59,991 bases of DNA from an uncultured Gammaproteobacteria bacterium (GCA_964551605.1 CAZKCV010000001.1:1-59991); one strand, 5' to 3'. Shown: positions 1,379 to 59,991, counted from the first letter of the stretch. Notes: generated by a model from the sequence alone, not told the origin. Made by a program: numbers and translations.

Positions 1379-3462
1379 ATCTTAAAACTCCGCTTTCTGC
1401 TTTAACCGGAATTGGTCCCGGGCTTTTATATAGACTTAAAAGACTTAACTTAAACTCTATTGAAGATCTGATATATCATTTTCCCTTTAGGTATGATGAT
1501 TTTTCCAATACTACTTCTGCACTGGAGGCTAAAGTAGGGGAGACTGTTACTTTACAGGGGGAAATCTGGTCGATCCAAAATATCTATACCCGGTCCCGGA
1601 AAATTATTACCAAAGCCGTATTTAATGATGGTGCCTCACCCATAGAACTAACCTGGTTTAACTCCTCCTGGCTGGTTAAACAAATACAAACAGGGGACAG
1701 GCTGCAGGTTTCAGGCAAAATCAGCAAATATAAAAACAAGCTTTCCATCATAGCCCCGCATTGGGAAAAACTTCCAACCCCCGGTGTTGGACAGCTTCCA
1801 ACCCCGGGATTACATACCGGCAGACTCGTCTCAATCTACCCTGAAACGGATGGTTTAAGTTCTAAATGGCTGCGGACAAAAATAGACAAGCTGCTGCCGG
1901 AAGTCATAGAGGAAATTAAGGATCCGTTACCGGATTCCATCCGTCAAAGCATGTTGCCACTTAGGGAAGCCATAAAACAAGTCCATTTCCCGGAAAATTG
2001 GGAACAGGCAGAAAAGGCCAGGGCAAGGTTAGGCTTTGATGAGCTATTTTTTATTTCTTTAGCTACCCATAAAGCCAGAGCAGAGTGGAAAAGAAAACCC
2101 TTAATTGAACCGTTAAAAATAAATCCCGAAGATATTAAGGAATTTACTGCTAAGCTACCCTTCAAACTAACCTATGCCCAGGAGAAAGTCTTAAAAGAAA
2201 TTCTGGAAGATTTAAAAAGTAATCAACCCATGAACAGATTGGTACAGGGGGAGGTAGGTTCCGGAAAAACAATTGTGGCTACCATTATTGCTTACCTGGT
2301 TTATAAAAACGGGCGGCGGACGCTTTTTATGGCCCCCACGGAAATTCTGGCTTTTCAGCATTACGATACGTTATCCAAACTTTTATCGCCATTTGGAATC
2401 ACAGTTGGAATATATACTGGATCTTACAAGTTTACTGAGGGTAAAGGGGGAAGCGGAAAGGGGAAAGTTAGAAAAAAACTTTACCCTTCACCCTTAACGC
2501 TTAACCCTGACATTATCATTGGCACCCATGCCCTTCTTTCTAAAAAACTTGCCACCGAGAATGTCGGACTGATCATCATAGATGAACAACAACGTTTTGG
2601 GGTCGAGCAAAGAACACTTTTGCGGGGAAAAACAGAAGTGCCGCATTTTTTAACTATGACAGCTACTCCCATCCCCAGAACAGTTGCCTTAACTTTATAC
2701 GGCGATCTTGATATGTCAGTCATTGATGAGTTACCGGTAGGCAGGCAAAGGGTGAAAACATATGTGGTTCCGGAAAGAAAGCGGCTTGATTCTTATGGCT
2801 TTATAGCCAAAAAGGTGGCTGAAGGAGACCAGGTTTATATAATTACCCCATTAATTGAAGCCTCCGAAACCCTCACCAGTGTCAAGGCAGCCAAGGTAGA
2901 ATTTGAGAGCTTAAAGAAAATCTTTCCCGGCCTCAACTTAGATCTGTTGCACGGCAGAATGAAGGGAACGGAAAAAGAAAAGGTAATTACGGACTTCCGC
3001 AAAGGCAAAACCGATATTTTAGTTTCCACCTCAGTAGTGGAAGTGGGCATGGATAACCCTAATGCCACCATTATGGTTATTGAAGGAGCAGAACGGTTTG
3101 GTTTGGCTCAGCTCCACCAACTGCGGGGTAGAGTGGGCAGGGGAACGAAAGAATCTTATTGCCTACTTTACACATCGGATGTGTCAAGTAATGAAGAGGG
3201 GAGGCTAAAATACTTGGAAACTACATTTGACGGGCTGAAACTGGCTGAACTGGACTTAAAAATCAGGGGCAGCGGGCAGATTTTTGGAACCATGCAATCC
3301 GGCAGGTTTGAATTGAAAATAGCAAATTTCCAAAATATCACCCTGCTGGAAAAAACCCGCCAGGCGGCCAAAGAGCTGTTAGATGCGGATCATACTCTTG
3401 ACAAACACCCGCTAGTTAAGGCAAGATTACAGGAAATCGCATCAGCAGTGATGCCTGATTAA
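1375..3462 (+). CDS. recG: ATP-dependent DNA helicase RecG
   Basis: HFPFRYDD, wedge OB fold, QGEVGSGKT, MAPTEILA.QH, DEQQRFG, MTATPIPRT, QLHQLRGRVGRG, DL.IRG.G. Confidence 0.97.
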   Translation: MNLKTPLSALTGIGPGLLYRLKRLNLNSIEDLIYHFPFRYDDFSNTTSALEAKVGETVTLQGEIWSIQNIYTRSRKIITKAVFNDGASPIELTWFNSSWLVKQIQTGDRLQVSGKISKYKNKLSIIAPHWEKLPTPGVGQLPTPGLHTGRLVSIYPETDGLSSKWLRTKIDKLLPEVIEEIKDPLPDSIRQSMLPLREAIKQVHFPENWEQAEKARARLGFDELFFISLATHKARAEWKRKPLIEPLKINPEDIKEFTAKLPFKLTYAQEKVLKEILEDLKSNQPMNRLVQGEVGSGKTIVATIIAYLVYKNGRRTLFMAPTEILAFQHYDTLSKLLSPFGITVGIYTGSYKFTEGKGGSGKGKVRKKLYPSPLTLNPDIIIGTHALLSKKLATENVGLIIIDEQQRFGVEQRTLLRGKTEVPHFLTMTATPIPRTVALTLYGDLDMSVIDELPVGRQRVKTYVVPERKRLDSYGFIAKKVAEGDQVYIITPLIEASETLTSVKAAKVEFESLKKIFPGLNLDLLHGRMKGTEKEKVITDFRKGKTDILVSTSVVEVGMDNPNATIMVIEGAERFGLAQLHQLRGRVGRGTKESYCLLYTSDVSSNEEGRLKYLETTFDGLKLAELDLKIRGSGQIFGTMQSGRFELKIANFQNITLLEKTRQAAKELLDADHTLDKHPLVKARLQEIASAVMPD
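1772..1811. repeat. In-frame palindrome CCAACCCCCGGTGTTGG plus partial second copy in recG
   Basis: Encodes LPTPGVGQLPTPG; near-identical to 21987-22006 in holB. Confidence 0.7.
2439..2508. repeat. In-frame inverted heptamer tract in recG
   Basis: GGGTAAA GGGGGAA GCGGAAA GGGGAAA ... TTTACCC TTCACCC TTAACGC TTAACCC; encodes GKGGSGKGKVRKKLYPSPLTLNP. Confidence 0.7.
3167..3188. repeat. In-frame palindrome ACACATCGGATGTGT in recG
   Basis: Near-identical to 29588-29610 in alr; both encode YTSDVSS. Confidence 0.65.
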
Positions 3463-3471
3463 CACCTACCT

Positions 3472-3666
3472 ATGGCCGGAGAACCAAAACGAAGACATTC
3501 TAAAGCGCAAAAAAGAACCAGAAGGGCTGCTATTAAATTAGCAGTCAATTTGGTTAACTGTAAAAACTGCGGTAAACTTACTTTATCCCATATAGCCTGC
3601 AAAGAGTGCGGCTTTTACGGCGGCAAGGCTGTAACCAAAGAAAAAGTTAAAGTGACAAAGGCCTAA
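3472..3666 (+). CDS. rpmF: 50S ribosomal protein L32
   Basis: PKRRHSKAQKRTRR; CKNCG..LSHIACKECGFYGGK zinc ribbon. Confidence 0.95.
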   Translation: MAGEPKRRHSKAQKRTRRAAIKLAVNLVNCKNCGKLTLSHIACKECGFYGGKAVTKEKVKVTKA

Positions 3667-4031
3667 TGAAGAAAAGATCTGACCCGCGGCACCTCAGGAG
3701 AATTACTCTCATGCAAGAGTTATTTTCCTGGCAATTTAAGCCCGGAAAAAGGGCTTCTCCTAAGATTTCAGGAATAGTCTCCAGTCTGCCTAAAATTGAT
3801 AAGCTGATTGCCAAATCAGCGCCTGACCGGCCGCTTCAGGAAATCAACCGGATTGATTTAGCTATCTTGCGTCTGGCAACTTTTGAGATTATATTAGATA
3901 AAGGGGTGCCTCCAAAAGTTGTTATTGATGAAGCTGTAGAACTGGGTAAGGAATTCGGCTCAGATTCATCAGCCAGTTTTATTAACGGCGCTTTAGGAAA
4001 GCTAATTGAGATAGAAAAAATTAAAACTTAA
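3666..4031 (+). CDS. nusB: Transcription antitermination factor NusB
   Basis: IDLAILRLATFEI, PPKVVIDEAVELGKEFGSDSSASFINGALG. Confidence 0.95.
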   Translation: MKKRSDPRHLRRITLMQELFSWQFKPGKRASPKISGIVSSLPKIDKLIAKSAPDRPLQEINRIDLAILRLATFEIILDKGVPPKVVIDEAVELGKEFGSDSSASFINGALGKLIEIEKIKT

Positions 4032-4033
4032 AG

Positions 4034-4989: not shown

Positions 4990-5391
4990 ATGCTTAAAAT
5001 TCGTTTAACTAGAATAGGTGCCAAAAAGAAACCTTTTTACCGGGTGGTTGTGATGGATGAAAGATCCAAAAGAAACGGCGCTTATATTGAACTGCTTGGT
5101 ACTTATAATCCTCTAACAGAGCCGAAAGAGATTAAATTAAAACAAGACCGGATTGATTATTGGGTCAAACAGGGAGCCCAGCTTTCCACAGGTTATCTCC
5201 GTATCATCGGCAAGGCTCCGCAAAGGCCGCCCAGGAAGCCGAAAAAGGAAAAGAAAGAGGCAACAGGCAACAGTGGACAGGTAAAAACGGAGGAACCTGC
5301 AAAAACAGAGGAGGCAGCTCCAGAAACTGAACAAGCAGAAGAAGAGCCGAAAACTGAAGAAAGCGAGAAAAAAGATGAAGGATCTGCTTAA
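4990..5391 (+). CDS. rpsP: 30S ribosomal protein S16 with acidic C-terminal tail
   Basis: [40 protein letters not shown]. Confidence 0.97.
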
Positions 5392-5638
5392 CTACATTGT
5401 TACCAGTTTAGTTACCAAACCGGAAGCCGTCTTGATTGATGAACAAAAAGAAGACAGCTTCATTACTTTGAATTTAATAGTTGACCCGTCTGATATGGGA
5501 CTGATTATCGGCAAAGGCGGTCAAACCATCAGGGCTATCAGAAAACTTTTAACAGTCAGGGCAATAGCAGAAAACGTTAGAGTGAATCTTCAATTGACAG
5601 AACCTTCAGTCAGTACATCTCCCGACGTGTCTACCTAA
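5375..5638 (+). CDS. khpA: KH-domain RNA-binding protein (KhpA/YlqC family)
   Basis: [17 protein letters not shown]; conserved position between rpsP and trmD. Confidence 0.9.
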
Positions 5639-5668
5639 CCCACACCTGGGGTGTGTTAGGTTCACACC
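5627..5668. repeat. REP-like doublet palindrome (family 1)
   Basis: GTGTCTACCTAAC-CCACACCTGGGGTGT-GTTAGGTTCACACC; the arms match the tails of the RAYT1-flanking elements. Confidence 0.8.
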
Positions 5669-5679: not shown

Positions 5680-6423
5680 ATGAAAATCTCAATCATTACT
5701 TTATTTCCGGAAGTGTTTAATCCTATTCTGAATACCAGTATCCTGAAACGGGCGCAAAAAAAGAACCTGGTAGAGTTTGAGCTCATAAATCTGCGCAATT
5801 TTGGTGAAGGCAGGCATCAGGTGGTTGACGACAAGCCATACGGTGGAGGAGCAGGAATGGTGCTGAAAGCTGATATTCTGGCTAAAGCACTCAAAAATAT
5901 CACTTCCAAACTGCCAACTACAAACTACCAATCCCGACGAATTTCATTCGATGAGGATTCTCGATTCGCGACAAAGTCGAAATCGGGACTACGAACTATT
6001 TTAATGTCTGCATCAGGAACACCGTATAAACAATCCGGAGCCAAACAATTTTCTCAACTTGATCATCTGATCGTCATTTGTGGCCACTATGAAGGAGTTG
6101 ACCAAAGGTTTATAGATAAATATGTTGATGAAGAAATTTCCATTGGTGATTATGTCCTGACCGGCGGGGAAGTACCAGCAATGGTCATTGTAGACTCTGT
6201 TACCAGGTTGGTTCCTGGTGTTTTGGAAAAACCGGAAGCAACTGTCAATGAATCCTTTTCTGAGGGGCTTCTTGAATATCCTCAATATACGCGGCCGGAG
6301 GACTTTGAAGGGGAGAAAGTTCCCGAAGTTTTGTTGTCCGGAAATCACGCTGCAGTAGATAAATGGCGATCCCAAAAATCCCGGGAAAAAACTAAAAAAG
6401 TAAGACCCGACCTGTTAAAATAA
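5680..6423 (+). CDS. trmD: tRNA (guanine37-N1)-methyltransferase
   Basis: IITLFPE, DDKPYGGGAGMV, CGHYEGVDQR, SIGDYVLTGGE, LLEYPQYTRP. Start taken at ATG 5680 (MKISII). Confidence 0.97.
   Translation: MKISIITLFPEVFNPILNTSILKRAQKKNLVEFELINLRNFGEGRHQVVDDKPYGGGAGMVLKADILAKALKNITSKLPTTNYQSRRISFDEDSRFATKSKSGLRTILMSASGTPYKQSGAKQFSQLDHLIVICGHYEGVDQRFIDKYVDEEISIGDYVLTGGEVPAMVIVDSVTRLVPGVLEKPEATVNESFSEGLLEYPQYTRPEDFEGEKVPEVLLSGNHAAVDKWRSQKSREKTKKVRPDLLK
5910..5998. repeat. In-frame insertion in trmD: heptamer tract interrupted by a palindromic element
   Basis: ACTGCCA ACTACAA ACTACCA [ATCCCGA...TCGGG] ACTACGA ACTA; adds about 30 residues. Confidence 0.65.
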
Positions 6424-6432
6424 TTTCCCTGG

Positions 6433-6462
6433 GTATCTACCTATCTCACCCCCGGGGTGGGA
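6433..6462. repeat. REP-like element (family 1), left flank of RAYT1
   Basis: GTATCTACCTATCTCACCCCCGGGGTGGGA. Confidence 0.8.
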
Positions 6463-6502
6463 TGAATTGACACCGTACTAATTTTTGTTGTAGTCTGAAA
6501 TT

Positions 6503-7171
6503 ATGCCCCTGCGCAAAATTCCCATTGTAGCCGGTGAAATTTATCATGTTTTCAACAGAAGTGTAGCGAGGCAACCAATCTTCCTCTCGTCTAGTGATTA
6601 TCGTCGGGCTGTGGAATGTATGAAATTTTATCTACATGACAACTTACCCCTCCGTTTTTCTCACTACAACCGTCTTCCCAAAGAACAAAAGGACTTGATG
6701 GATAAAACAATAAAAAATTCTTCCCGACTAATAGAAATATTAAGCTTTTGTCTGATGCCTAATCATGTGCATTTCCTGCTCAGAGGTCTAACAGAGAAAG
6801 GGATCATTCAATTTATGAGTAATTTCCAAAATAGCTATGCAAAATATTTTAACCTAAAAACAAATAGAAGCGGAACTTTATTTCAGGCAATGTTTAAAGC
6901 AGTTCGAATAGAAACCGGCGAACAACTTATGCATGTCAACCGATACATACACTTAAATCCCTTCACATCATATATAGTTAGTAATATCGCTGATTTGGAG
7001 AAATACCCATGGTCTTCATGCCCTGATTATTTAGATCCTTCACCAAGCTTCATAAATAAGGAGTTTGTATTAAGCTTTTTCAAAGATATACCGTCTTACA
7101 AACAATTCATTGCAGACCAAGCCGATTATCAACGCAGGCTGGACGAGATTAAACATTTAGTTCTTGAATAA
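6503..7171 (+). CDS. REP-associated tyrosine transposase (RAYT, Y1/HUH, IS200-like fold), copy 1
   Basis: YHVFNR, CLMPNHVH (HUH), SYAKYFN, YIHLNP, YPWSS; upstream TTGACA (6467)..TAGTCT (6491). Confidence 0.9.
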   Translation: MPLRKIPIVAGEIYHVFNRSVARQPIFLSSSDYRRAVECMKFYLHDNLPLRFSHYNRLPKEQKDLMDKTIKNSSRLIEILSFCLMPNHVHFLLRGLTEKGIIQFMSNFQNSYAKYFNLKTNRSGTLFQAMFKAVRIETGEQLMHVNRYIHLNPFTSYIVSNIADLEKYPWSSCPDYLDPSPSFINKEFVLSFFKDIPSYKQFIADQADYQRRLDEIKHLVLE

Positions 7172-7177: not shown

Positions 7178-7208
7178 GGTGTGAACCTAACCCACCCCGG
7201 GGGTGGGA
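7178..7208. repeat. REP-like element (family 1), right flank of RAYT1
   Basis: GGTGTGAACCTAACCCACCCCGGGGGTGGGA, same orientation as the left flank. Confidence 0.8.
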
Positions 7209-7235
7209 GACGCACACACCGTCTTCAGATTCAGC

Positions 7236-7928
7236 TTACTCAAAAGGGTTTGATTTACCTCGGGAAGTTAAGGGGGTTTCGGTAAAACCTGCAGTTTCCG
7301 CTTCCTGCATAATCCTGGCAATCAGTTCTTCATCCTTCTGACTAAGCAAAGGCACCGGGGAATCCGGACTGCCGAAATCCTTGGGTAAAGGCGAATACAA
7401 AACTTCAATAGCCAAAGCTATATTTAAAGCTTCAATTGCCTGGTTAGATGAAATGTCTATGCTTTTTATCCTCACCAGCCGGGGTGAATTCTCCAAATTA
7501 TCCAGTAAGGCTTGTAGCAATATTCTGGAACCTCTAAGTTCCATTTTAACCTCAAAACTATTTGCGTTCCCTAATTGCCCGGCAGTATTGCCGAAGGAGA
7601 TGGAACTGATACCAAATCCCAGCTCCAGGGTCAGTTTCTGCAACAATCCTACAACACTCCCAAAATCTTTTTCGCCGGGAAGGGTAACCAAGGCGAATTC
7701 CAGTTTGCGGGATAAATCCGTGCTATCATAACTTTCCAAAGCGCTGACTTTATTTTCCAAAAGCTTAGACTTATTCATCAGACCCTCAATGACACTCTGG
7801 TTATCAACTAACTTAATCACCTGGGGATAAATTATAAATAAAATTATAAAAATGCTGGATAATGCCACCGCTGCCGGAAAAATATAGAGATTATATTTGG
7901 TATAGAATTTAATTAAATCTTGCTTCAT
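7236..7928 (-). CDS. pilO: Type IV pilus assembly protein PilO-like
   Basis: N-terminal TM, coiled coil, LP.EKD..., LQALLDNLENSPRLVRIKSI; follows pilM-pilN. Confidence 0.75.
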   Translation of the reverse strand: MKQDLIKFYTKYNLYIFPAAVALSSIFIILFIIYPQVIKLVDNQSVIEGLMNKSKLLENKVSALESYDSTDLSRKLEFALVTLPGEKDFGSVVGLLQKLTLELGFGISSISFGNTAGQLGNANSFEVKMELRGSRILLQALLDNLENSPRLVRIKSIDISSNQAIEALNIALAIEVLYSPLPKDFGSPDSPVPLLSQKDEELIARIMQEAETAGFTETPLTSRGKSNPFE

Positions 7929-9561: not shown

Positions 9562-9569
9562 TGTTCTTA

Positions 9570-9601
9570 TTGTAAATTGTAAATTGTAAATTGTAAATTG
9601 T
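9570..9601. repeat. Heptamer tandem repeat (TTGTAAA)x4
   Basis: Perfect repeats filling the gap between pilM and the upstream pilin-like gene. Confidence 0.85.
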
Positions 9602-11397
9602 TACTTTACTTGGTATGTTCCCTTAACCAGCGAATACGACCCTGAAGGTCCGGCAGTAAACATAGTGCTGCTTAAGCCGGTTTCATAATCTATAGTGGAA
9701 TTATTAATTAACTTAATCTTCCAGGCAGTCAACTCCTTAAAAGAATTTCCTGTCCCAGGTTCAATAATACCGGTACTGGCATAATAAACTCCGGTATTGC
9801 CGTTGCTATTTACCTGGACGGCTGACTCACCGTTAGTCCGTGAATCAAAGGCGGTCAGCACCATCAGCAAACTACTGTCCATACCTGTACCATTTAGATG
9901 GTTATTGCTGTTTAAGGTCACCTTCCCGTCAACAATGATAACTCCGGAAGCGGCTCCATAACCTGAATCAAGGGTTAAAACATTATTACTGTTTAGTGTT
10001 AAGTTCCCGGTTATCCAAAGGGGGCTTTTAATATTGACCCGGCAGCCGCTGTTTAAGGTAACATTACCGACAACCTTCCTGGAATCAATATTGCTGACAC
10101 AACTGGTGATGCTGCCGGTCTCGCCGTTTGCTGCGGCAATCTGCTTCCAGTTGGCTACATTGGCATCGGAAATCGGGAAAACCTTGGGCGGCGGATCGGC
10201 TGAACCGGGAAAAGAAGTCCCGCCCACCGCAGAATTGATGATGGCTTGATAATAGGCATCCCGGCCAATAGTGAGATTTTCAATCGTATTAGCCCGCACC
10301 TCTCCGCTGACAGTCATTTTATTGCTGCCGGCTTTGACTGAAGTAGGTGATCCGCCGAAAAATGACTTAAAGCTTAAATCTACCTGAGGATTAGGAATAT
10401 TCCATTCGGGATTTCCGGTTGACCAATTAGGTGACCACCCGGGTGCCCCTCCGGTATAACTTTGCGCCAAATCAGACTGCCAGATCCAATAATTGTTATT
10501 ATCCTGGGCAGTATCAATCATTAACCAATACTTATCATCTGCCCCTATTTGCGGGGAAGAATTAAAGGTGATATCAATCCAGCCATAGACATCAGTTACC
10601 AGGCTGCTATAAAGTGTACCTTGTGCCAAAACTTCGTTTTTATCAGGTTCTCCGTCCTTATCTTCCATTATCCTGACCATAGCATCAGGCGGATTACCGG
10701 CCTTTTTTACCTTAACTGAAACTTTATTTAAGATGCCATCGGCAGCCGGTTGAAAACTTTGGGCCGCATCAAACCTATCCTCGCCGTTGACTGTTTTACC
10801 GAAGATAAAATCCTGACAGTTGCTATCCGAACAGTCGGTTTGTTGATCAGCAGAAGGAGCCGGCCCGCCGGCCACCCAGACATCCCCGGTAATTTGGTTC
10901 CCGTTTCCGGCGGTAATATTACCGTTTGAATAAACAGAACCTTCCACAATATTACTGTTACCAAGCTCTAAACCACCTTCTCCCACCTGCAAACCATAGA
11001 CGAAGGCCACACCCGTACCAATAGATGATTTTATTTTGACGGTTCTTTTAACTCTGGCTTTTTGCTTATTCGGAATATAACCTGTTGATTGGATCAGCTT
11101 GGAACCCACACCTAACGAAGTAATTGCGACTGAATACGAACCGTCTCCGAAATCAGTTTCCGGCTCACCGGTATAACTCCCGCCGGTACTATTTAAGGAG
11201 TTTAAGGCTTTATCAATCCCAGCTTCAGCCAAAACTGTTGCTTTTTCGACATCAGCAGCATAGGCGGCATTTTGAAAATAGATTTGCGCCCCGGCGATTA
11301 AGGACAAAACTGTGAATAAAACTACTGCCAATACTATCAATACTATTGCCAGAATCTGTCCAGATTGGTTATGAGTTATACGAACTATTTTAGTCAT
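9601..11397 (-). CDS. Large PilX-like minor pilin / putative tip adhesin (598 aa)
   Basis: SG|QIL hydrophobic pilin-like N-terminus, LAEAGI motif, beta-rich central domain, G/N-rich beta-helix-like C-terminus. Confidence 0.75.
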   Translation of the reverse strand: MTKIVRITHNQSGQILAIVLIVLAVVLFTVLSLIAGAQIYFQNAAYAADVEKATVLAEAGIDKALNSLNSTGGSYTGEPETDFGDGSYSVAITSLGVGSKLIQSTGYIPNKQKARVKRTVKIKSSIGTGVAFVYGLQVGEGGLELGNSNIVEGSVYSNGNITAGNGNQITGDVWVAGGPAPSADQQTDCSDSNCQDFIFGKTVNGEDRFDAAQSFQPAADGILNKVSVKVKKAGNPPDAMVRIMEDKDGEPDKNEVLAQGTLYSSLVTDVYGWIDITFNSSPQIGADDKYWLMIDTAQDNNNYWIWQSDLAQSYTGGAPGWSPNWSTGNPEWNIPNPQVDLSFKSFFGGSPTSVKAGSNKMTVSGEVRANTIENLTIGRDAYYQAIINSAVGGTSFPGSADPPPKVFPISDANVANWKQIAAANGETGSITSCVSNIDSRKVVGNVTLNSGCRVNIKSPLWITGNLTLNSNNVLTLDSGYGAASGVIIVDGKVTLNSNNHLNGTGMDSSLLMVLTAFDSRTNGESAVQVNSNGNTGVYYASTGIIEPGTGNSFKELTAWKIKLINNSTIDYETGLSSTMFTAGPSGSYSLVKGTYQVK

Positions 11398-12007
11398 TCC
11401 TTAGATTTGCCTCCGATGTAGCCGGACTGGTTTGGCTTAATTTTAAACTGATACGCACTTTGGCAGCATTAACCGGGGATACCTCAACCGGCGGGGAAGC
11501 AGAGTTAAAGTACTGGAAATGAAGGCCTGTTACCTCTGTTGCCAATATTGAATTACCCTGTTTTCTGGAACTTGAGGGATCGGGGAAAGTTTTGAAACGC
11601 AGGAAGCTTTGGTCTTTGAAAAAAATAAAATAATCAGAGGCTCCCTCCAGCATATCTCCGGCAGTATCAATGGCAGTTACTTTCAGAACCAACTGATTCT
11701 CACCGGTAGTATAGGTATCCGTACCGTCAGTGTAAGAACTGGCCACGGCATTGGCATCTTTAATGCTGAGGCGTACTTGCGACAGCGCCTCATTAATATT
11801 TAGACCTTTTTGTACCTTTGAAGACTGGTCGGTAAATACCCCGCTGCTTTGTACCACAACCATTAAAAGCAGCGTCCCGACTACCAAAGCAATCCCCATC
11901 GCCACCAAGACCTCCACTAAGGTTAAACCTTGCGAAGATGTCTTCCGTCTTCTGTCTTCCGTCTTCCGCTGCGGTAGTCGGTAGTCTGTAGTCGGTAGTC
12001 GATTCAC
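11390..12007 (-). CDS. Minor pilin (PilW-like) with repeat-encoded leader
   Basis: QG|LTLVEVLV class III signal; the leader is encoded by heptamer repeats. Confidence 0.8.
   Translation of the reverse strand: MNRLPTTDYRLPQRKTEDRRRKTSSQGLTLVEVLVAMGIALVVGTLLLMVVVQSSGVFTDQSSKVQKGLNINEALSQVRLSIKDANAVASSYTDGTDTYTTGENQLVLKVTAIDTAGDMLEGASDYFIFFKDQSFLRFKTFPDPSSSRKQGNSILATEVTGLHFQYFNSASPPVEVSPVNAAKVRISLKLSQTSPATSEANLRND
11938..12002. repeat. Two adjacent heptamer tracts within a pilin leader
   Basis: Minus strand: (ACTACCG/ACTACAG)x4 followed by (GAAGACG/GAAGACA)x4. Confidence 0.8.
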
Positions 12008-15956: not shown

Positions 15957-16889
15957 TTAAGACCCGAACTGTAAATACCAGTTGATAATTTCAGTTCCCC
16001 AGAAAACCATAATCAGGCTGCCTAAAACCAAGAATGGACCAAAGGGAATGGTTTGTCCAAAATGCTTTTTCCCCAGCAGGATTAACGCCACGGAAAACAG
16101 CGCCCCGGTTATAAATGCTAAAACCAAAGCAAAAAGCGCCTGAGGAAAACCCAATACCAACCCGATAAATGCCCCCAGCTTAACATCTCCGCCACCCATG
16201 CCTTTACCTTTAGTAATAATGATCAGACTGTAAAAAAAGCCGCCAATCACTGCAGCCATCAGGATTCCGTATATCAGCGGTTCTGCCAGTTGCAAAGCAT
16301 GCCTTTGAAAATAGTCACTGCGGGGCGGCAGCAACAGTTGTCCCACTATATTCTGGGATAGGAAATAATAAAGATAACCTATTTTATAGGCAGTAACCAC
16401 AATTAAAGAAACCAGGCCTATTAAAATAGCCGGCTTGATAATCCGGTCAGGAATAAACATTTTCTTCAGGTCAGTTAAAAAGAGGCTTGCCAGAATAGTT
16501 ACAAAAAATATTTTAACCCCCAGATTTAGCAGAAAAATTGAAAATTGAAAACTTGTCCTGAGCGAGCGAAGCGAGTCGAAGGATTGAAAATTTCTAAATG
16601 CCTGCCAAAACAATAAACCTATCAGTATTCCCATTCCCACTTCAACCACTAAATATTCCTGCCCAATCTTTCTATGGCAATACCGGCATCTTCCGCGTAA
16701 CCGGATATATGAAGCAACAGGAAAAAGGTCGTACCATTTCAGTTCTTTTTTGCAAAACGGACAGTACGACCTTCCCCAAAATGATTTCTTACCTAAACTC
16801 CTGTCGGCCAGAGCCTTAACAAAACTTCCCAGTATTGATCCTGCTGCAAAACCAAGGACTAAAATTATGACTCCGACCGTAAAGTTAAT
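15957..16889 (-). CDS. pilD: Prepilin peptidase (A24) with no canonical start codon
   Basis: Frame stays open 80 codons upstream of the track start and contains GSF, RSYCPFC..CRYC; catalytic GMGGGDVKL and IPFGPFL present. No ATG/GTG/TTG lies in the extension; 16889 is an in-frame ATT. Confidence 0.85.
   Translation of the reverse strand: MNFTVGVIILVLGFAAGSILGSFVKALADRSLGKKSFWGRSYCPFCKKELKWYDLFPVASYIRLRGRCRYCHRKIGQEYLVVEVGMGILIGLLFWQAFRNFQSFDSLRSLRTSFQFSIFLLNLGVKIFFVTILASLFLTDLKKMFIPDRIIKPAILIGLVSLIVVTAYKIGYLYYFLSQNIVGQLLLPPRSDYFQRHALQLAEPLIYGILMAAVIGGFFYSLIIITKGKGMGGGDVKLGAFIGLVLGFPQALFALVLAFITGALFSVALILLGKKHFGQTIPFGPFLVLGSLIMVFWGTEIINWYLQFGS
16535..16592. repeat. In-frame insertion in pilD: CCTGAGCGAGCGAAGCGAGTCGAAGG element nested in an (AAATTGA)n tract
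   Basis: Encodes NFQSFDSLRSLRTSFQFSIF; the core is shared with yebC 54485-54509. Confidence 0.7.
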
Positions 16890-24639: not shown

Positions 24640-24812
24640 CTCATTTTTCGCATTTCAAAGCTATAAATCATATAATGTAGCTTAGTTATGGCTACAAAGG
24701 TAGTAAGAAAATATTTTCCACCTGGAGGGTGGACTAGCTTGGCACCTCTTCTTTTCTCGCATTAACAGATTAAAAATCATATAATGTAGCTTAAACTATG
24801 GCTACAAAAGTA
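24640..24812 (+). repeat. Tandem duplication of the murC promoter/5' end, split by a family-2 REP
   Basis: AAATCATATAATGTAGCTTA..ATGGCTACAAA.GTA occurs at 24665 and 24774; REP at 24716-24747 lies between them. Confidence 0.85.
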
Positions 24813-36458: not shown

Positions 36459-36499
36459 AAGGTATTGACACCTATACTTATTTGCTTTATTTTTAAGAT

Positions 36500-37174: not shown

Positions 37175-37187
37175 TACAAAAAAGGAA

Positions 37188-37218
37188 AGGTGCCAAGCTA
37201 ATCCACCTTCCAGGTGGG
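37188..37218. repeat. REP-like element (family 2), right flank of RAYT2
   Basis: AGGTGCCAAGCTAATCCACCTTCCAGGTGGG. Confidence 0.85.
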
Positions 37219-49975: not shown

Positions 49976-50518
49976 TCAGCGCAAGCTGGCGTTTTTGCGG
50001 TTAAGAAAGTTTTGCTTGTGATTAATGTACTCAAAAAAGCGGGGTTTTGCTTGAAATTCAAATATTTTTAGATCTTCCAAATGCGGATAGGGTAGGAGTA
50101 AAAAGCTTTTAGTTGTAGAAAGGCTCAGGAATTTTTCTAACTTTAAAGCATTTGTATCCCCACATTCAACTGGAAAACACAAACTCTTATCAATTACATC
50201 AACTTCAAAACCAATTAAGGGGTATTCATAAACAATATCTGCTCTGGAAACTCCCAAGTTATCAACTAAATAATTTGCAGCAAATGTCTTTAAAACTAAG
50301 TGGGTTAAACTTTCTCCTTCTGTTAAAAGAGCTTCTCTTGAACTTGCTGCCTGATCTAATCTCTCTTCAAACTGGCCATGATCAGCTAAAATTTTAGAAG
50401 ATAATTTCAATAACCCTCCCTGATACATCCAGGTAATCTCATCTATATTCGCCCAATCAATGTTTGGACTAAAATTACTGTAAAAGATCTTTAAGAAATC
50501 ATGATTAGACCTTGTCAT
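49976..50518 (-). CDS. Hypothetical protein, possible PD-(D/E)xK nuclease fold
   Basis: H.VLK..., EYP..GFEVDV..PVECG pattern; AT-rich DNA. Confidence 0.5.
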   Translation of the reverse strand: MTRSNHDFLKIFYSNFSPNIDWANIDEITWMYQGGLLKLSSKILADHGQFEERLDQAASSREALLTEGESLTHLVLKTFAANYLVDNLGVSRADIVYEYPLIGFEVDVIDKSLCFPVECGDTNALKLEKFLSLSTTKSFLLLPYPHLEDLKIFEFQAKPRFFEYINHKQNFLNRKNASLR

Positions 50519-51135
50519 ATTTTATAAGGATTAAACAAATTAATTAACCTGATGAAATTTTCTATTGTGACTATCTTCCATCCTAAAGGGAGTTTTGTAA
50601 TTTTTTTCAAAACCCAGCTATCAATTTTATTTTGTTTATAGAAACTATTAACAACTATATAAAGTTTTAGATTTAAATTATGATATTTACTAATTTTGGT
50701 ATTAATATTTCCTTGCAAATTCCTAAAATGACCTGTTGTATTGGTCACATCGACTGCGAAATTTTCAGTCCGGTTGTATACGAAAAAATCTATTCTATCC
50801 TTAAATTTACCAACTCTTCTTTGTATATGAACGAATGGCTCACCGAATTTATTTATGAGGATTTTTTCTACTTGGTGCTCAAATTTTAACCCAGCCCTAT
50901 TCACTTGATTAGCTATTTTTGATCTATATTGACCTATACCAAGGTGTATATCATTATATCCCAAATCCTTTCTCACTTTTACCATCCCACCAAATTTCAT
51001 TTGTATCCATCTTGAAGAAGGTAAATAATCAATATTATCTAAATCATTTACAGTAGGGAATCTATCGTTTTCCTTGTAAAAACGATCTATGCCTTCCCTT
51101 AAATCTTCTAAATTCCAAAGTTTATATTTTCCCAT
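50515..51135 (-). CDS. Putative PD-(D/E)xK nuclease with an N-terminal homing-endonuclease-associated-repeat-like domain
   Basis: F.KENDRFPT..D..LPS..IQ.KFGG; G..FE..V..IL, RIDF, AVDV..T. Start taken at MGKYKL (51135). Confidence 0.55.
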   Translation of the reverse strand: MGKYKLWNLEDLREGIDRFYKENDRFPTVNDLDNIDYLPSSRWIQMKFGGMVKVRKDLGYNDIHLGIGQYRSKIANQVNRAGLKFEHQVEKILINKFGEPFVHIQRRVGKFKDRIDFFVYNRTENFAVDVTNTTGHFRNLQGNINTKISKYHNLNLKLYIVVNSFYKQNKIDSWVLKKITKLPLGWKIVTIENFIRLINLFNPYKI

Positions 51136-52144
51136 TCTTTTCAGGCTTTTCTGCAAGTGGATGATAACGTCTGTGGGAATCTTCAGCGAACCGGTCGGAA
51201 GCATTAACATATCTAGTTGTGGTATTTAATGATTCGTGTCCTAGAAGCATTTGAATTGCAACAGGAGAAGCGCCTTCTTCAGCCAAATAAGTAGCAAAGC
51301 CGTGGCGTAACGAGTGAGCGCTGGTCGGAACTATAATACCTAGTTTTTCTCTGTAACTTTTAATTTTAGCTTGCAGGTAATTAGGCGAAATTCTGCAATC
51401 TTTTGTACCCATTCTTCGTCCTTTTTGAGGAACAAACAAAGCAGGCAAAGTATCCTGTCTTATTCTAAGATAAGTATCGATTAAAGACATGGCTCTTTCT
51501 GTCAAGTAAACAAATCGTTCTTTCTTACCCTTACCCATAATAAAAATTCTGCCGCTTCTATCAATATCTTTTCTGTTTAAAGAAAGTAGTTCAGAAATCC
51601 TCATACCGGTTGCAAATAACACCTCCAGCATAGCTCTATTTCGAGCTGCTACTATAGGATCACTTTCCAAAATCGAAGGGGATTCTATTAAAGATACTAA
51701 TTCGTTTAATTCTGCTACTTTATAATGCTTTTTCTCTTTTCGTACCATTCTTATACTTTCCGGCTGGACTGGAATTTTATAATCCTGAAAGATTAGGAAC
51801 TTTAAATAACTTCTAAAAGAGGACAGTATTCTATTTATGGAGCCGCTTTGCAGTTTAGAAAAAGCCTCTTGCTCGTAAATTGCAGTTTTACGGTCAGTTG
51901 ATAAAAGATATGCTTTATAATGTTCAATGTCGGCCTTGGTTATTTGATCAAATTCCTTTTTTATTTCATTTTCCAAAAAATAGGTGAGAGTAAGCAAATC
52001 CCGTTCATAGTTGTACATTGTTTCGGAAGAGTAATTGTCAGTCTGCAAATGCAGTAAGAATTCATCAAAGAGAGGCAAGGAAATTTTCTTTTTTGCTTCA
52101 GCAGGCGAGCTTAACATAATGAGTGTTAGATTGATTATACTCAT
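51122..52144 (-). CDS. Tyrosine recombinase/integrase
   Basis: RNRAMLEVLFATGMRISEL, GKGKKER, HSLRHGFAT, LLGH, TTRY. Confidence 0.92.
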   Translation of the reverse strand: MSIINLTLIMLSSPAEAKKKISLPLFDEFLLHLQTDNYSSETMYNYERDLLTLTYFLENEIKKEFDQITKADIEHYKAYLLSTDRKTAIYEQEAFSKLQSGSINRILSSFRSYLKFLIFQDYKIPVQPESIRMVRKEKKHYKVAELNELVSLIESPSILESDPIVAARNRAMLEVLFATGMRISELLSLNRKDIDRSGRIFIMGKGKKERFVYLTERAMSLIDTYLRIRQDTLPALFVPQKGRRMGTKDCRISPNYLQAKIKSYREKLGIIVPTSAHSLRHGFATYLAEEGASPVAIQMLLGHESLNTTTRYVNASDRFAEDSHRRYHPLAEKPEKNGKI

Positions 52145-52921
52145 AATAATAGGTTCAGGCAGGCTTTGTCAAGCATCTAATTGAGTCTAAGCTTACGATA
52201 AGCTAGGTAAACTATTAGGATTTCCATTGCTTGCTGAGAAGCAACCTGTGCGAAGAATAAACAAAAGTCTAACAAAGAAAGCATACTACACAAACAAGGA
52301 AGCGTACCTAAAACGCTGTCTATACTAGCTATTTTCAGCTCTTTTAAGGCTAGTTAGACACGAGGCCTTGGAAGGCCCCAAAAACGGCTTTCTAGGGGAT
52401 AAGACGTAGGATAGGTCATCTATAGTTTAGATTGTTACAGAAACCTAAACCTATGTGTTAAGTGGCAATAAATTGAAAAGGAAAAATGACAGAAAATTTA
52501 GACGGGAACTATTGTTTTTAAACTGCATTAAATATTTTCATAAATTCCTCCATCTTATCCATTAATCTTTATAGCTTTGGGAACCCAAGACCACTTCTCC
52601 GTTTTTTCTTATTTCCATATTGTGCGACATCAATCATATAGGGAAGGATTATGGAAGAGAGAAATAAGGGATACTATGATATTGGGATATTCATTAAGGA
52701 TACATGGTCTCTTTATATCGTAATATCCTTATATCCATACCCAAAGAGAGCAGCCTTCTCCTCTCCCGACCTTCGGGTAATGTTTAGCAACTATCAACAG
52801 AGTATGCCAGAAATAGGCACACAAATACCTTATAGTTTTCCACATTTATACCTAGCAATTATATCATACTATATCATCCGTAGTTTTCACGAAATATCCT
52901 GTAGTTTTTCACACTTCCCCA

Positions 52922-54249: not shown

Positions 54250-55022
54250 AAAAGACTTTCTTCTATATCAAAGTTGGCATAAACTTTTTGCACATCATCC
54301 AGCTCCTCTAATTTCTCTGCAAATTCTAACACCTTTTTTACCATGTCCGGATCTTTAATCTCCACTAAAATATTGGGTTTATAGACCAGCTCCTGGCTCT
54401 CTACCCCGAATCCGGCCTGAGTAATTTTATTACCCATAGTATTTAATTCTGAGCTCTCTGTATATACTAAGTACTTTTGTATATCATGACCCTGAGCGGA
54501 GTCGAAGGGTTCTATATACTCTTCCACATCTTCTGCTCCCAAATCTATTAACTGTAACATTTCCTGTTCCCTGTCGCCTGTAACCTGTTCCCTTACCTTT
54601 ATTTCCCCTTTCCTCTCAAACATATATGCCACACTTCCCTGTCCGGCTAAACTACCGCCACCCCGCTCAAAGATATTTTTAACCTCCTGAAGTGTCCGCA
54701 TTTTATTATCAGTCACCCCTTCTACTAAAAATGCCACTTTACCAGGCCCAAAGCCTTCATACATGACTTCTTCCAGGGTTTGACCGGGCAGTTTTCCCAA
54801 TCCCCTGTCAATAGCCCGCTGGACGTTTTCTTTGGGCATATTAACAGCCTTGGCAGCTTCAGCAGCCATTCTAAGCCTGGGGTTGGATTCCGGATCCCCG
54901 GAAGCACCCACTTTAACTGCTATAGTGATGGCATTGGCAATTTTGGTAAAAGTTAAGCCGCGTTTGATATCCGCTGCCCCCTTCGCACGTTTAATGGTAG
55001 ACCATTTGGAATGCCCGCTCAT
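54246..55022 (-). CDS. yebC: YebC/PmpR family protein
   Basis: MSGHSKWSTIK, NPRLR, YEGFGPG, TDN..RT, LEELDDVQKVY.N. Confidence 0.96.
   Translation of the reverse strand: MSGHSKWSTIKRAKGAADIKRGLTFTKIANAITIAVKVGASGDPESNPRLRMAAEAAKAVNMPKENVQRAIDRGLGKLPGQTLEEVMYEGFGPGKVAFLVEGVTDNKMRTLQEVKNIFERGGGSLAGQGSVAYMFERKGEIKVREQVTGDREQEMLQLIDLGAEDVEEYIEPFDSAQGHDIQKYLVYTESSELNTMGNKITQAGFGVESQELVYKPNILVEIKDPDMVKKVLEFAEKLEELDDVQKVYANFDIEESLL
54485..54593. repeat. Two in-frame inserts in yebC: CCTGAGCGGAGTCGAAGG element and an (AGGGAAC)-type heptamer tract
   Basis: Encode PFDSAQGH and REQVTGDREQ. Confidence 0.65.
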
Positions 55023-55127: not shown

Positions 55128-55162
55128 TCACCCTAGGGGTGGATACAGGTTGGCACCCCAGG
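55128..55162. repeat. REP-like element downstream of RAYT3
   Basis: TCACCCTAGGGGTGG..TTGGCACCCCAGG; preceded by TAGTCAC-type repeats. Confidence 0.8.
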
Positions 55163-55188: not shown

Positions 55189-55860
55189 TTATTCCATTAC
55201 CAAATCTTTTATGTAGGCTAAACTCCTTTGGTAGTCCGCCTGATTTGCCACAAATTCAACATATTTCTCCTTTGTCCCGAATATTTTTAATAGAAAGTTC
55301 GAATCAATAAAGGGAATCTGTTGATCCGTGGCATATGCCGGAAAAGAAGTCCATTCAAAATCAGCTAATTTATCAAACTCAATTATGTATGAAGTTACCG
55401 GGTTGAGATGGATATAGCGGGAAACATGGATGAAATCCTCATCGGTCGCAATCCTTCTAGCCTTAAAAGCATTTTGAAATAAAGCTCCGTTACGGTTATT
55501 TTTCAAATTAAATGCCTTGGCAAAGCTGTTTTGTAAGTTGGAGATAAAGGTAACAATCCCCTTGTCCACAAGCTGTTTTAACAAAAAATGAAAATGGTTT
55601 GGCATAAAAGCAAAAACATAAATTTCCACCAGAGGCGTTATACTTCCCAGAGCATCCAGATACTGCTTCTTCAATTCTGATGTTAAGCTTTTAAATTTGG
55701 ACAGCCTGATTTTTTGGGGAAAGCGATAATAGTCGACTATTTCCAGGGCTTTATTTAAATTATCTTTCTGATTCTGGGCAAAGATATTTTCCCTGGCAAT
55801 TGAACGGTTGAAAACATGATAAATTTCATCGTTGGCAAAAACTACTTGTCGTTGAGGCAT
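55189..55860 (-). CDS. REP-associated tyrosine transposase (RAYT), copy 3
   Basis: YHVFNR, FMPNHFH, SFAKAFN, SRYIHLNP, FEWTS; upstream TTGACA-17-TAATCT. Confidence 0.9.
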   Translation of the reverse strand: MPQRQVVFANDEIYHVFNRSIARENIFAQNQKDNLNKALEIVDYYRFPQKIRLSKFKSLTSELKKQYLDALGSITPLVEIYVFAFMPNHFHFLLKQLVDKGIVTFISNLQNSFAKAFNLKNNRNGALFQNAFKARRIATDEDFIHVSRYIHLNPVTSYIIEFDKLADFEWTSFPAYATDQQIPFIDSNFLLKIFGTKEKYVEFVANQADYQRSLAYIKDLVME

Positions 55861-55885: not shown

Positions 55886-55920
55886 CCTGGGGTGTCAATA
55901 TACGACCACCCCTAGGGTGA
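55886..55920. repeat. REP-like element upstream of RAYT3, inverted relative to the downstream copy
   Basis: Reverse complement TCACCCTAGGGGTGG..TTGACACCCCAGG. Confidence 0.8.
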
Positions 55921-58811: not shown

Positions 58812-58820
58812 AATAATCTA

Positions 58821-58863
58821 GGACACCTCCGAGGAGTAACTTCGTCACACCTCGGAGGTGGGA
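58821..58863. repeat. REP-like doublet overlapping the tgt stop
   Basis: GGACACCTCCGAGGAG .. CACACCTCGGAGGTGGGA. Confidence 0.65.
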
Positions 58864-59991
58864 TTTTTAAGGTATTCAGCTTTTAATTCCCTGAATTTTC
58901 CCTGCTTGATGGCTTTTCTCATATTCTCCATTAGATGAATTACAAAATACACGTTATGATGAGTAGCCAGCTGGTGGTACAGGATCTCATTAGCCATGTA
59001 AAGGTGGCGGAGATATGCTCTGGAAAAATTTTTACAAGTGTAACAACTGCAGCTTGAATCAATCGGCTTTTTATCAGTGGTAAATTTACCCTGCCTGATA
59101 TTCAAGGTAAAGCTATTGGCTCTTTTTCCGCCGGCTTGAGGTGAAATATACAAAGAGCCAAACCTGGCCCGTCTCATTGGTGCCACACAGTCAAAAAAAT
59201 CCATGCCCCCCTCAACTCCGTTAAACAGGTCTTCCACTTCCCCGATTCCCAGCAGGTGTTTAGGCTTGTCTTCCGAAACCTCACTAACCACCCATTCCAC
59301 AATCTTACAAAGGGTGGCCTTGTCCCCATAAATCCCGCCAATGGCAATGGCTTCAAAATTATCATCAGTAAACCGGGCAGACCTGATCCGCAGATCCTTG
59401 TGTATTCCGCCATGAACAACACCATAAAGTAAAGGTGCAGCTACATTTCCACCCTCCAGGTGGACTAGCTTGGCACCTACTCTTTTTTTATATTCTGCCA
59501 GGCTACGGAGCCCCCATCTTTCTGTCAGCTCTATGGACTCCAGCATTTGAGCCTTAGTGTGCTTTGCAGATTCATGATCATCAAAAGCCACAATTAAATC
59601 AGCTCCCAGCTGGCGTTGGATTTTGATTGACTTCTCGGGAGTTAAAATATACTTGGAGCCGTCTAGATGGGATTGAAAAGTAACCCCTTCTTCCGTAATT
59701 TTGTTTAACCTTGGCCTGCTTTTTACATTCTGAACTATGAATTCTGAATTCTGAATTTCTCGCAGCACTTTGCTGCTGCCATGCTCCAGTGCCACCCCCA
59801 GGGAATAAACCTGAAAGCCACCGGAATCAGTCATAACAGGTTTATCCCAACCCATGAACTGATGTAAACCACCAAACTTTTCTATTAAGTCCGCGCCCGG
59901 ACGGAGCATCAAATGATAAGTGTTAGCTAAAATAATCTGGCTGCCGATTTCCGAAAGCTCCCGGGGCCCCAGGGCTTTAACTGCACCTAAA
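58845..59991 (-). CDS. tgt: tRNA-guanine transglycosylase (5' end beyond the window)
   Basis: ANTYHLMLRPG, TDSGGFQ, GVVHGG, HLLGIG, DCV.P, CSCYTC..H zinc site; frame open to the window edge. Confidence 0.95.
   Translation of the reverse strand, partial: LGAVKALGPRELSEIGSQIILANTYHLMLRPGADLIEKFGGLHQFMGWDKPVMTDSGGFQVYSLGVALEHGSSKVLREIQNSEFIVQNVKSRPRLNKITEEGVTFQSHLDGSKYILTPEKSIKIQRQLGADLIVAFDDHESAKHTKAQMLESIELTERWGLRSLAEYKKRVGAKLVHLEGGNVAAPLLYGVVHGGIHKDLRIRSARFTDDNFEAIAIGGIYGDKATLCKIVEWVVSEVSEDKPKHLLGIGEVEDLFNGVEGGMDFFDCVAPMRRARFGSLYISPQAGGKRANSFTLNIRQGKFTTDKKPIDSSCSCYTCKNFSRAYLRHLYMANEILYHQLATHHNVYFVIHLMENMRKAIKQGKFRELKAEYLKNPTSEV
59447..59481. repeat. Family-2 REP inserted in frame in tgt
   Basis: Reverse complement AGTAGGTGCCAAGCTAGTCCACCTGGAGGGTGGAA; encodes VGAKLVHLEGG. 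Confidence 0.85.
59727..59758. repeat. In-frame heptamer tract (ATTCAGA)n in tgt
   Basis: Encodes IQNSEFIVQN. Confidence 0.7.

Follow-up and report, generated by a model that had tools for sequence, protein, structure and literature searches.

We analyzed the first 59,991 bp of a 222,933-bp contig (CAZKCV010000001.1; the analyzed stretch is called the window here), in which short dispersed repeats lie in frame inside essential genes. The window is ~93% coding and carries recG, nusB, rnc, rpsP, trmD, a type IV pilus cluster, holB, gyrB, murC, a MurL-MurD fusion gene, alr, ddl, def, gyrA, xerC, ruvC, yebC, and tgt, as well as three genes for repetitive extragenic palindrome (REP)-associated tyrosine transposases (RAYTs), each flanked by REPs. 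The closest protein matches came from Candidatus Daviesbacteria (90 to 93% identity for GyrA and ~81% for RecG); judged by these matches, the host is a member of that group (Microgenomates, candidate phyla radiation [CPR]) with a genome of roughly 1 Mb. The account that we favor, at a probability of about 0.72, is that dispersed repeats would repeatedly enter coding DNA and that selection would spare in-frame, stop-free copies in permissive loops.

In-frame segments in housekeeping genes

Window genes were compared with orthologues from sister genomes, taken as 22-kb loci (L035 and L036 for alr, def, and murC; L037 and L038 for trmD; L039 and L040 for yebC). In the sister codon alignments the flanks of the segments were 80 to 93% identical, and repeat counts were made from the window and the sampled loci. 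A first reading made from the sequence alone had proposed at least 15 in-frame inserts; the alignments gave at least 17 in-frame, stop-free, lineage-specific segments of 5 to 37 codons in ten genes (recG, trmD, holB, murC, murL-murD, alr, def, gyrA, yebC, and tgt), and all kept the frame. Most were absent from sister orthologues or were replaced there by unrelated segments, and the clean gaps in these alignments indicate that most are lineage specific, as the sequence-only reading had expected. The segments are listed below with a pilD candidate and a recG palindrome that proved to be ancestral (z, folding z score; families A, B, and E are repeat families described in the next section).

1772-1812, plus strand: recG site 1, two tandem CTTCCAACCCC(C)GG copies, hairpin z = -4.6, peptide LPTPGVGQLPTPG
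2428-2508, plus strand: recG site 2, 27 codons, inverted pair of heptamer arrays forming one long hairpin, z = -5.2
3164-3190, plus strand: recG site 3, palindrome TACTTTACACATCGGATGTGTCAAGTA in a length-conserved segment, peptide LLYTSDVSS
5907-5988, plus strand: trmD insert, array CAAACTA x3.1 followed by two short palindromes, peptide KLPTTNYQSRRISFDEDSRFATKSKSG
16534-16582, minus strand: pilD N-terminal segment, array AAAATTG x2.6 plus CCTTCGACTCGCTTCGCTCGCTCAGGAC, peptide SFDSLRSLRTSFQFSIF, candidate insertion
21660-21690, plus strand: holB site 1, degenerate inverted family E copy, peptide LNLSGYRTN
21966-22015, plus strand: holB site 2, REP family A-like (GGTGATACGCACCCAACCCCGGGGGTTGGAAAGGAAGATA), z = -3.2, peptide NPAGDTHPTPGVG
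24975-24992, plus strand: murC insert 1, with an inverted family E copy at 24968-25001, peptide ACNLKGYRT
25281-25295, plus strand: murC insert 2, VHDRE, weak hairpin, present in the relative JACPDA and absent from L035 and L036
25515-25544, plus strand: murC insert 3, TPIKQKSDDR, holding the palindrome TGACGATCGTCA
26013-26051, plus strand: murC insert 4, QVEPKLRNGGKMV, hairpin z = -3.1
28263-28293, minus strand: family E copy in the MurL domain, peptide VRQPERLQA, candidate insertion
29585-29605, plus strand: alr insert SLYTSDV, 7 codons, palindrome ACACATCCGATGTGT
32825-32869, plus strand: def insert 1, 45-nt hairpin, z = -3.8, 15 codons, peptide GLPATPRKLGLRGGR
33026-33049, plus strand: def insert 2, 8 codons, with a family E copy at 33013-33046, z = -3.5
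33906-34016, plus strand: gyrA insert, 37 codons, z = -5.1, peptide end SPRDDNKF
54489-54509, minus strand: yebC insert PFDSAQG (CCCTTCGACTCCGCTCAGGGT), 7 codons, absent from L039 and L040
59427-59486, minus strand: tgt REP insert, full family B copy, z = -5.0, in-frame peptide KRVGAKLVHLEGGNVAAP
about 59706-59792, minus strand: tgt site 1, hypervariable, 25 to 29 codons, array ATTCTGA x4.4 at 59727-59757

Three inserts had been proposed in recG, and two of them stood. Across 29 orthologues, site 1 was hypervariable and was empty in P0162 and P0180; its CCAACCCC.GG..TTGG core, present in tandem and shared with holB site 2, resembles the REP flanking RAYT1. Site 2, made of (AGGGGAA)x4.3 and (CTTAACC)x4.3 arrays, held little or no extra sequence in about one-third of these orthologues and unrelated inserts of up to 45 aa in the others, including VIARN..KQS- and IASL..ARND-type elements in other Daviesbacteria (P0129 and P0131). 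The third site is not an insertion: its length is conserved even in T. maritima RecG, and reverse complementing the conserved YTS codons gives its DVS codons. The alr insert is identical at 18 of 19 nt to recG 3167-3185; it may have been copied from the recG palindrome, or both may derive from a third element, and the match fits either history.

The proposed inserts in trmD, alr, and gyrA and the two in def held up against sister orthologues. TrmD has a surplus of ~20 codons relative to L037 and L038 and of ~24 residues relative to S. aureus TrmD. In def, insert 1 is ~73% GC (measured over 32822-32872) inside a gene of 42% GC and occurs once in all DNA examined, insert 2 is the reference copy of family E (ATTTGTGCTGCAACCTGAAAGGTTGCAAGCTAAA; peptide VLQPERLQAKL), and both are gaps against solved peptide deformylases. 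Positions 33915-33997 of the gyrA insert are a hairpin element of 83 nt whose terminal inverted repeats, GTCATTGCGAG and CTCGCGATGAC, are 11 nt long; the insert falls cleanly between residues 202 and 204 of B. subtilis GyrA, and this site was empty in 9 of 28 Daviesbacteria orthologues, and the rest carried unrelated segments of 16 to 68 aa.

For murC, the single insert first noticed became four segments absent from L035 and L036, three of which are shared with JACPDA; at site 1, the sisters had either nothing (L035) or a different hairpin, SHIGSG (L036 and JACPDA). Family E copies orthologous to that of the MurL domain were present in L020, L042, and L045. Both proposed holB sites carried different sequence in JACPDA, the single sister compared: a different segment 7 residues longer at site 1 and an unrelated sequence of similar length at site 2. 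Site 2 of the window matches the RAYT1-flanking REP at 81% over 31 nt.

Two other earlier calls were trimmed. YebC had been credited with two inserts, and besides the 7-codon PFDSAQG segment there was only a 1-codon indel; in tgt, where two to three had been suggested, the REP and site 1 remained, and site 3 was mostly conserved across the family. Site 1 of tgt was empty in P0290, P0312, P0313, and Z. mobilis TGT. The yebC insert and the pilD segment both hold CCTTCGACTC..GCTCAGG, and pilD also has a 13-mer in common with the gyrA element.

Three side observations concern these host genes. First, MurL and MurD are fused in the window (26172-28676, minus strand; the MurL epimerase domain is residues 10 to 399, and the other part is the MurD ligase), in JACPDA, and in two metagenome contigs; the corresponding position of L035 (3405-6167) and L036 (4241-6442) holds murI, for glutamate racemase, and murD as a gene of its own. 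From this gene content, the D-glutamate route into peptidoglycan seems to differ between close relatives. Second, several Daviesbacteria GyrA proteins of 1,263 to 1,346 aa (P0040, P0042, P0066, P0079, P0084, P0085, and P0102) contain inteins or homing-endonuclease domains (PF14528 and PF14890); none was present in window GyrA. Third, in L014 (JACPDA010000004.1, 1042-1885), a tgt with the same REP at the same site is split into two open reading frames (ORFs) and lacks the middle of the gene; a pseudogene or an assembly error beside the REP is possible.

Repeat families and the RAYT genes

The three RAYT genes and the REPs outside genes were located as follows.

6503-7171, plus strand: RAYT1, Y1 HUH transposase with an HVH motif and the RYIHLNP tyrosine
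36500-37174, plus strand: RAYT2, Y1 HUH transposase
55189-55860, minus strand: RAYT3, Y1 HUH transposase
6433-6474, plus strand: REP family A, upstream flank of RAYT1, found by self-comparison
7179-7220, plus strand: REP family A, downstream flank of RAYT1, inverted relative to 6433-6474
36421-36479, plus strand: REP family B, full two-tier hairpin, upstream flank of RAYT2
37178-37217, plus strand: REP family B (5' half), downstream flank of RAYT2
55128-55162, minus strand: REP family C, flank of RAYT3
55886-55920, plus strand: REP family C, other flank of RAYT3
5627-5668, plus strand: intergenic REP family A, between a KH-domain gene and trmD
24708-24755, minus strand: intergenic REP family B, between gyrB and murC, with an orthologous copy in JACPDA (L020)

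In profile searches, all three RAYT ORFs scored above the curated cutoff for PF01797 (Y1_Tnp). Their top NCBIfam match was REP_Tyr_transpos (E ~1e-12), yet it fell under the curated cutoff (46 versus 80 bits). The HVH/HFH and RYIHLNP tyrosine motifs were kept in the RAYT alignment, and pairwise identity among the three was 45 to 48%. Each RAYT has REPs in inverted orientation on both sides. Sister genomes had neither RAYT nor REP at the syntenic positions (L037 and L038 for RAYT1, L035 and L036 for RAYT2, and L039 for RAYT3), where the trmD-pilO junction, the region downstream of gyrA, and the yebC-TPR junction, respectively, were empty; other relatives carry RAYTs at other loci, each with its own REP type.

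Families A, B, and C have a common architecture, GGTG..CAA.CTA..CCACC-loop-GGTGG with an optional outer stem, by which we assign them to one superfamily. Several family B copies (36421 and the tgt copy of the window, and L025 and L030) have GTAG ahead of the GGTGCC core (AGAGTAGGTGCC), and many others have ACAG, ATAG, or GAAG in its place. The tRNA and Rfam scans of the window returned no match, which ruled out the GGTGCCAAGCTA..CCACC motif as a known RNA. The KH-domain gene ends in a stop codon that the intergenic REP at 5627-5668 contributes, and the true start of trmD (ATG at 5680) follows shortly downstream of this REP. The intergenic REP upstream of murC is bracketed by a 44-nt direct repeat (24641-24684 and 24750-24793; 80% identical) that contains a perfect 20-mer, AAATCATATAATGTAGCTTA, with TATAAT; this repeat may be a duplicated promoter or a duplication made by insertion.

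Pattern searches with shuffled controls found motif counts far above random expectation within the window, where the sequence-only reading could have failed. Family B (GGTGCCAAGCTAGTCCACC) had 4 copies versus 0.01 expected, the family A/D core (CCAACCCCGGGGGTTGG; CC[CA]ACCCCGGGGGT[GT]GG) had 7 matches versus 0.30 expected, and family E (GCAACCTGAAAGGTTGC) had 5 matches versus 0.17 expected. In a species-representative genome collection, the family B 19-mer occurred at 34 loci (43 copies at ≤2 mismatches), nearly all in Microgenomates (Daviesbacteria, Shapirobacteria, Levybacteria, Woesebacteria, and Gottesmanbacteria); a match in Neisseriaceae (L032) had no hairpin and was set aside as a chance coding match. 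The title "uncultured Gammaproteobacteria bacterium" on many third-party (TPA) metagenome-assembled genomes that contain the Microgenomates REP (e.g., L015, CAZAZW010000003.1) looks wrong. In keeping with the view of REPs as normally extragenic, ~80% of the 43 copies lay outside long ORFs, and ~20% were intragenic. About 9 of the 43 were well within long ORFs of real-looking proteins, including a GT39-like membrane protein, an Obg-like GTPase, a RibD_C-like protein, and a PMT-like protein (two copies), and mostly read GAKL[IV]H..GG.

REP density in the window was ~1.9 per kb in intergenic DNA versus ~0.3 per kb in coding DNA, a difference of ~7-fold. The intragenic-to-intergenic ratio of repeat copies was nevertheless ~2:1, with intergenic DNA making up just 7% of the sequence; most copies by number are intragenic because the genome is ~93% coding. 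The scarcity of intergenic space that had been proposed thus agrees with these counts.

The earlier observation that the same DNA recurs in unrelated genes was also confirmed. The tgt REP matches the REP upstream of RAYT2 (36421-36447) at 27 of 27 nt, followed by a flipped 5-nt loop and then the second arm, and the alr and recG palindromes match as described above. Family E, of 31 to 34 nt, lies in the window solely within genes (def, the MurL domain, murC [inverted], and holB [inverted and degenerate]). An exact-pattern scan of a metagenome collection found six further copies, two in pheS of different organisms (frame VLQPERLQA), two in orthologous MurL genes, and two in short or no ORFs. Elsewhere, JACPDA has an ESRVKSQ..SRLSTLATS peptide in GyrA as well as RecG (P0004 and P0123), and L036 has SHIGSG in MurC as well as MurD.

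Palindromic structure, which had been expected of all inserts, held for half of them. Folding z scores were ≤ -3 for 9 of 18 folded segments (8 of 17 lineage-specific ones) versus 1% of 400 random 50-nt coding windows, and the window had 32 hairpins with stems of ≥9 bp versus ~16 in shuffles. The strong set comprised recG sites 1 and 2, the family A-like segment of holB, def inserts 1 and 2, murC insert 4, gyrA, the tgt REP, and, marginally, others. Folding was no better than that of shuffles for murC inserts 1 and 2, yebC, and part of trmD (its tail); together with the heptamer arrays, this ruled out the idea that all segments are palindromes. Period-7 tandem arrays numbered 11 in the window versus 0.93 in shuffles (shuffle maximum, 3), with 2.3 to 4.7 copies of several unit types; the sequence-only reading had not noted this class.

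255-285, 2438-2508, 5258-5273, 5907-5928, 7827-7850, 9569-9601, 11940-12001, 16534-16551, and 59727-59757: heptamer arrays

Seven of the 11 arrays lie inside ORFs, where their peptides (e.g., LPTTNYQ and EIQNSEFIVQN) repeat every 7 residues; arrays make up recG site 2, tgt site 1, and parts of the trmD and pilD segments. The (GTCTTCC)x4.1 and (CGGTAGT)x4.3 arrays (11921-12007) sit at or just upstream of the start of a pilin-like gene (11390-12007) and, if translated, would read VNRLPTTDYRLPQRKTEDRRRKTS; the true start is probably downstream of both.

The 5-nt loop of family B was exactly inverted between copies (CCACCCTCCAGGTGG and CCACCTGGAGGGTGG; 59446-59486 versus 24715-24755 and 36421-36460), and the inversion yields HPPGG or HLEGG in different Tgt orthologues. 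This looks like a template-switch inversion inside the hairpin and raises the alternative that the hairpins formed in place, by template switching or slippage during replication, with likeness between genes arising by convergence or occasional ectopic gene conversion. An exact loop flip is a signature of intrahairpin template switching; the perfect palindrome at recG 3164-3190 lies in a length-conserved region, heptamer arrays are prone to slippage, and neither def insert 1 nor recG site 2 had a second copy in any DNA examined. However, families B and E share 27 to 34 nt, including nonpalindromic flanks, between unrelated genes and organisms, which in-place formation cannot yield; family B copies adjoin a transposase gene; and def insert 1 has a far higher GC content than its gene. 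As an account of the whole set, in-place formation is therefore unlikely. As a contributor alongside the entry of dispersed repeats, in-place template switching is clearly suggested by the loop flips and the recG site 3 palindrome.

Apart from the repeats, the window has a low-GC stretch (49976-52921; 33% versus ~43%) with a tyrosine integrase (51122-52144) and three small ORFs, which is probably an integrated element. The largest noncoding gap of the window (52145-52921; 777 nt) directly follows the integrase.

Turnover at insertion sites and the origin of the segments

Neighbor-joining trees of gap-free columns placed tgt orthologues with the REP among REP-less ones. The nearest Tgt neighbor of the window (P0243) lacks the REP, and it is present in the orthologue, 62% identical, of the complete genome CP066688.1. 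Insert-free GyrA orthologues were likewise scattered, and insert types were not monophyletic. These polyphyletic distributions ruled out a single ancestral insertion in tgt and in gyrA and fit either multiple gains or multiple losses. At several hotspots, sister lineages carry different elements, or none, at one site; because of this, we regard gain, loss, and replacement as ongoing.

The inserts had been proposed to lie in protein loops, and the comparisons agree. Inserts are gaps relative to solved peptide deformylase, TGT, GyrA, RecG, and TrmD structures. AlphaFold 2 (AF2) models, used solely to tell coil from structured elements, placed recG sites 1 and 2 in coil with a predicted local distance difference test (pLDDT) score below 50 between well-predicted strands (E344-347 and E380-383 for site 2) and showed site 3 as structured. 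In the Tgt model, the REP peptide is coil between helix H146-168 and strand E188-192, with pLDDT below 50 at residues 174 to 183. Placement in loops is thus supported by predicted structure as well as by alignment.

Loops of this kind could simply be fast-evolving, low-complexity surface regions in which repeats are incidental and no mobile DNA is involved. The weak or missing hairpins and the lack of second copies for murC inserts 2 and 3, yebC, and tgt site 3 fit this explanation, as does the fact that the same loops vary in length in distant bacteria. It is contradicted by motif counts far over those of shuffles, by hairpins in 50% of segments versus 1% of random windows, by DNA identity across unrelated genes, and by the tgt REP of L040, which is ~78% identical to the window copy in DNA (~88% if the loop flip is counted as one event) versus 62% identity between the proteins. 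For the multicopy families, ordinary loop evolution is already largely refuted, and it survives for single-copy, nonhairpin inserts; as a general explanation, we consider it very unlikely.

The better conservation of the tgt REP B DNA than of the surrounding gene between distant orthologues could also mean that intragenic hairpins are kept for a function in DNA or RNA (mRNA stability, translational pausing, or sites for gyrase or another protein) or in the peptide. Independent intragenic family B copies all have one orientation and mostly one frame, and hotspots such as murC site 1 are reused by different hairpins of the same length. Yet the inserts are missing from these essential genes in close sisters, which means that none is required; REP B showed no significant covariation; and the orientation bias stems partly from stops in three of the six consensus frames, among few independent copies. 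Retention for function is in our view quite unlikely.

The explanation that we prefer, repeated entry of dispersed repeats followed by selection, would work as follows. Several small repeat families (the REP superfamily A/B/C, at least four other palindrome families, and heptamer arrays) would reside together in a ~93% coding genome that offers mostly genic landing sites, and copies would keep entering genes. Selection would purge copies that break the frame, add a stop, or disturb the folded part of the protein, and what remains would be the segments of 5 to 37 codons, confined to a few surface loops in which housekeeping enzymes tolerate them. On the established REP/RAYT model, RAYTs would mobilize families A and B via single-stranded hairpin DNA, and the other palindrome families may move by a similar or another route. 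Slippage would be the obvious source of length change in heptamer arrays, and the encoded peptides would be neutral passengers. A bolder version, in which existing hairpins are re-targeted by RAYT-type enzymes or by hairpin-directed template switching so that loops act as cassette sites, is doubtful; if true, reduced genomes would have a dedicated generator, driven by DNA structure, of variation in protein length.

Several points weigh against repeated entry of mobile repeats. The sequence-only reading treated the inserts as RAYT-linked REPs, and this stands for 3 of ~17 in all: the link is direct in the case of tgt and one of resemblance in holB and recG site 1. The window holds no enzyme linked to def insert 1, to the gyrA element, to family E, or to the alr/recG and yebC/pilD motifs. 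MurC inserts 2 and 3, yebC, and part of trmD are single copy with weak or no hairpin signal and may be ordinary indels. Covariation in the REP B hairpin amounted to one varying base pair among 40 copies, no better than shuffles. Outside the REP itself, the residues of the tgt site are not the same in orthologues with and without the REP, a history that neither a simple insertion nor a precise excision describes. The AF2 models of Tgt and RecG are moderate (mean pLDDT of 58 and 62; shallow alignments), the repeat counts cover the window and sampled loci, and the insert peptides are known from DNA alone.

Known repeat systems and implications

RAYT-associated REPs of the GTAG type have been described inside genes, many of them for replication, repair, or tRNA metabolism, in several phyla (Di Nocera et al. 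2013; PMC3733652), with hosts of such "REPtrons" including Pseudomonas, Opitutus terrae, Thauera, Xanthomonas, and others. The same work reports that REP ends often give stop codons to genes, that different REPs can occupy the same site of orthologues, and that CGTC REPs, including RPE-4 and RPE-6, also occur inside known genes (PMC3733652). The system described here resembles GTAG REPtrons in having Y1 HUH genes between inverted REP hairpins of 30 to 60 nt, most copies extragenic, some REPs supplying an upstream stop codon (5627-5668), and a minority in frame inside proteins. It differs in its CPR host of ~1 Mb, in three diverged RAYTs within 60 kb at loci that sisters do not share, in a density of about one in-frame segment per 3 to 4 kb of coding DNA, in the non-RAYT palindromes and heptamer arrays at the same hotspots, and in RAYTs that score under the NCBIfam cutoff.

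According to PMC10969869 and PMC3733652, which cite Ogata et al. (2000), Rickettsia palindromic elements (RPEs) are palindromic repeats that lie in frame in unrelated housekeeping genes of a reduced genome, and RPE-1-type elements are ~100 to 150 bp long. The window elements are similar in insertion mode: they are in-frame palindromes in unrelated genes, tolerated at the surface, that create new peptide segments. Most are 18 to 60 nt, and gyrA alone (83 to 111 nt) nears RPE size. Unlike RPE-4 and RPE-6 (CGTC type), for which the literature consulted names no dedicated transposase, they have a candidate RAYT alongside, the host phylum is unrelated, and no kinship in sequence with RPEs would be expected. 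From these comparisons, the elements appear to work like RPEs and to fall outside the RPE family by length.

Miniature inverted-repeat transposable elements, or MITEs, and small mobile sequences of enterobacteria are nonautonomous, have terminal inverted repeats, and can create in-frame ORF fusions (Delihas 2007, PMC2759123; reviewed in PMC10969869). MITEs are much longer than most of the present elements, among which clear terminal inverted repeats (11 nt) were confined to the gyrA element. Codon alignments with sisters showed no target-site duplication at any insert; the GGAAAA on both sides of def insert 1 is already tandem in the sister. Cyanobacterial short tandemly repeated repetitive sequences are dispersed tandem arrays of 3 to 5 copies of a 7-nt unit, with several units per genome. 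The window arrays are likewise dispersed heptamers of several units at above-chance numbers; unlike the cyanobacterial ones, many read as protein and some inverted pairs form long hairpins, the units are probably unrelated, and the phylum is a different one.

Literature searches found no paper linking REPs or in-frame palindromes with CPR or Patescibacteria and nothing relevant on the repeat-derived peptides (SEAKQS, RFARND, and others). The suggestion of an undescribed CPR version of the phenomenon thus holds for the CPR and must be narrowed otherwise, as intragenic RAYT-type REPs were already listed in several phyla (PMC3733652). Intragenic REPs and RPEs were known; what stands out here, besides the CPR host, is how dense the segments are, how many families reside together, that heptamer arrays are read as protein, and that elements turn over at hotspots.

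These observations would extend selfish repeats inside genes to the CPR; the earlier cases come from Rickettsia and, here and there, from genomes of proteobacteria, verrucomicrobia, and others. They would thereby account for some of the unusual insertions and differences in length among CPR housekeeping proteins. Peptides such as LPTTNYQ would be repeat derived rather than functional motifs, which bears on annotation, on family clustering, and on the use of gyrA and recG as phylogenetic markers. The natural insert-plus and insert-minus alleles of essential enzymes would serve as a ready map of permissive loops, and diverged RAYTs beside their own REPs at loci that vary between sisters would offer a system in which to ask whether these RAYTs are mobile elements or domesticated, single-copy genes.

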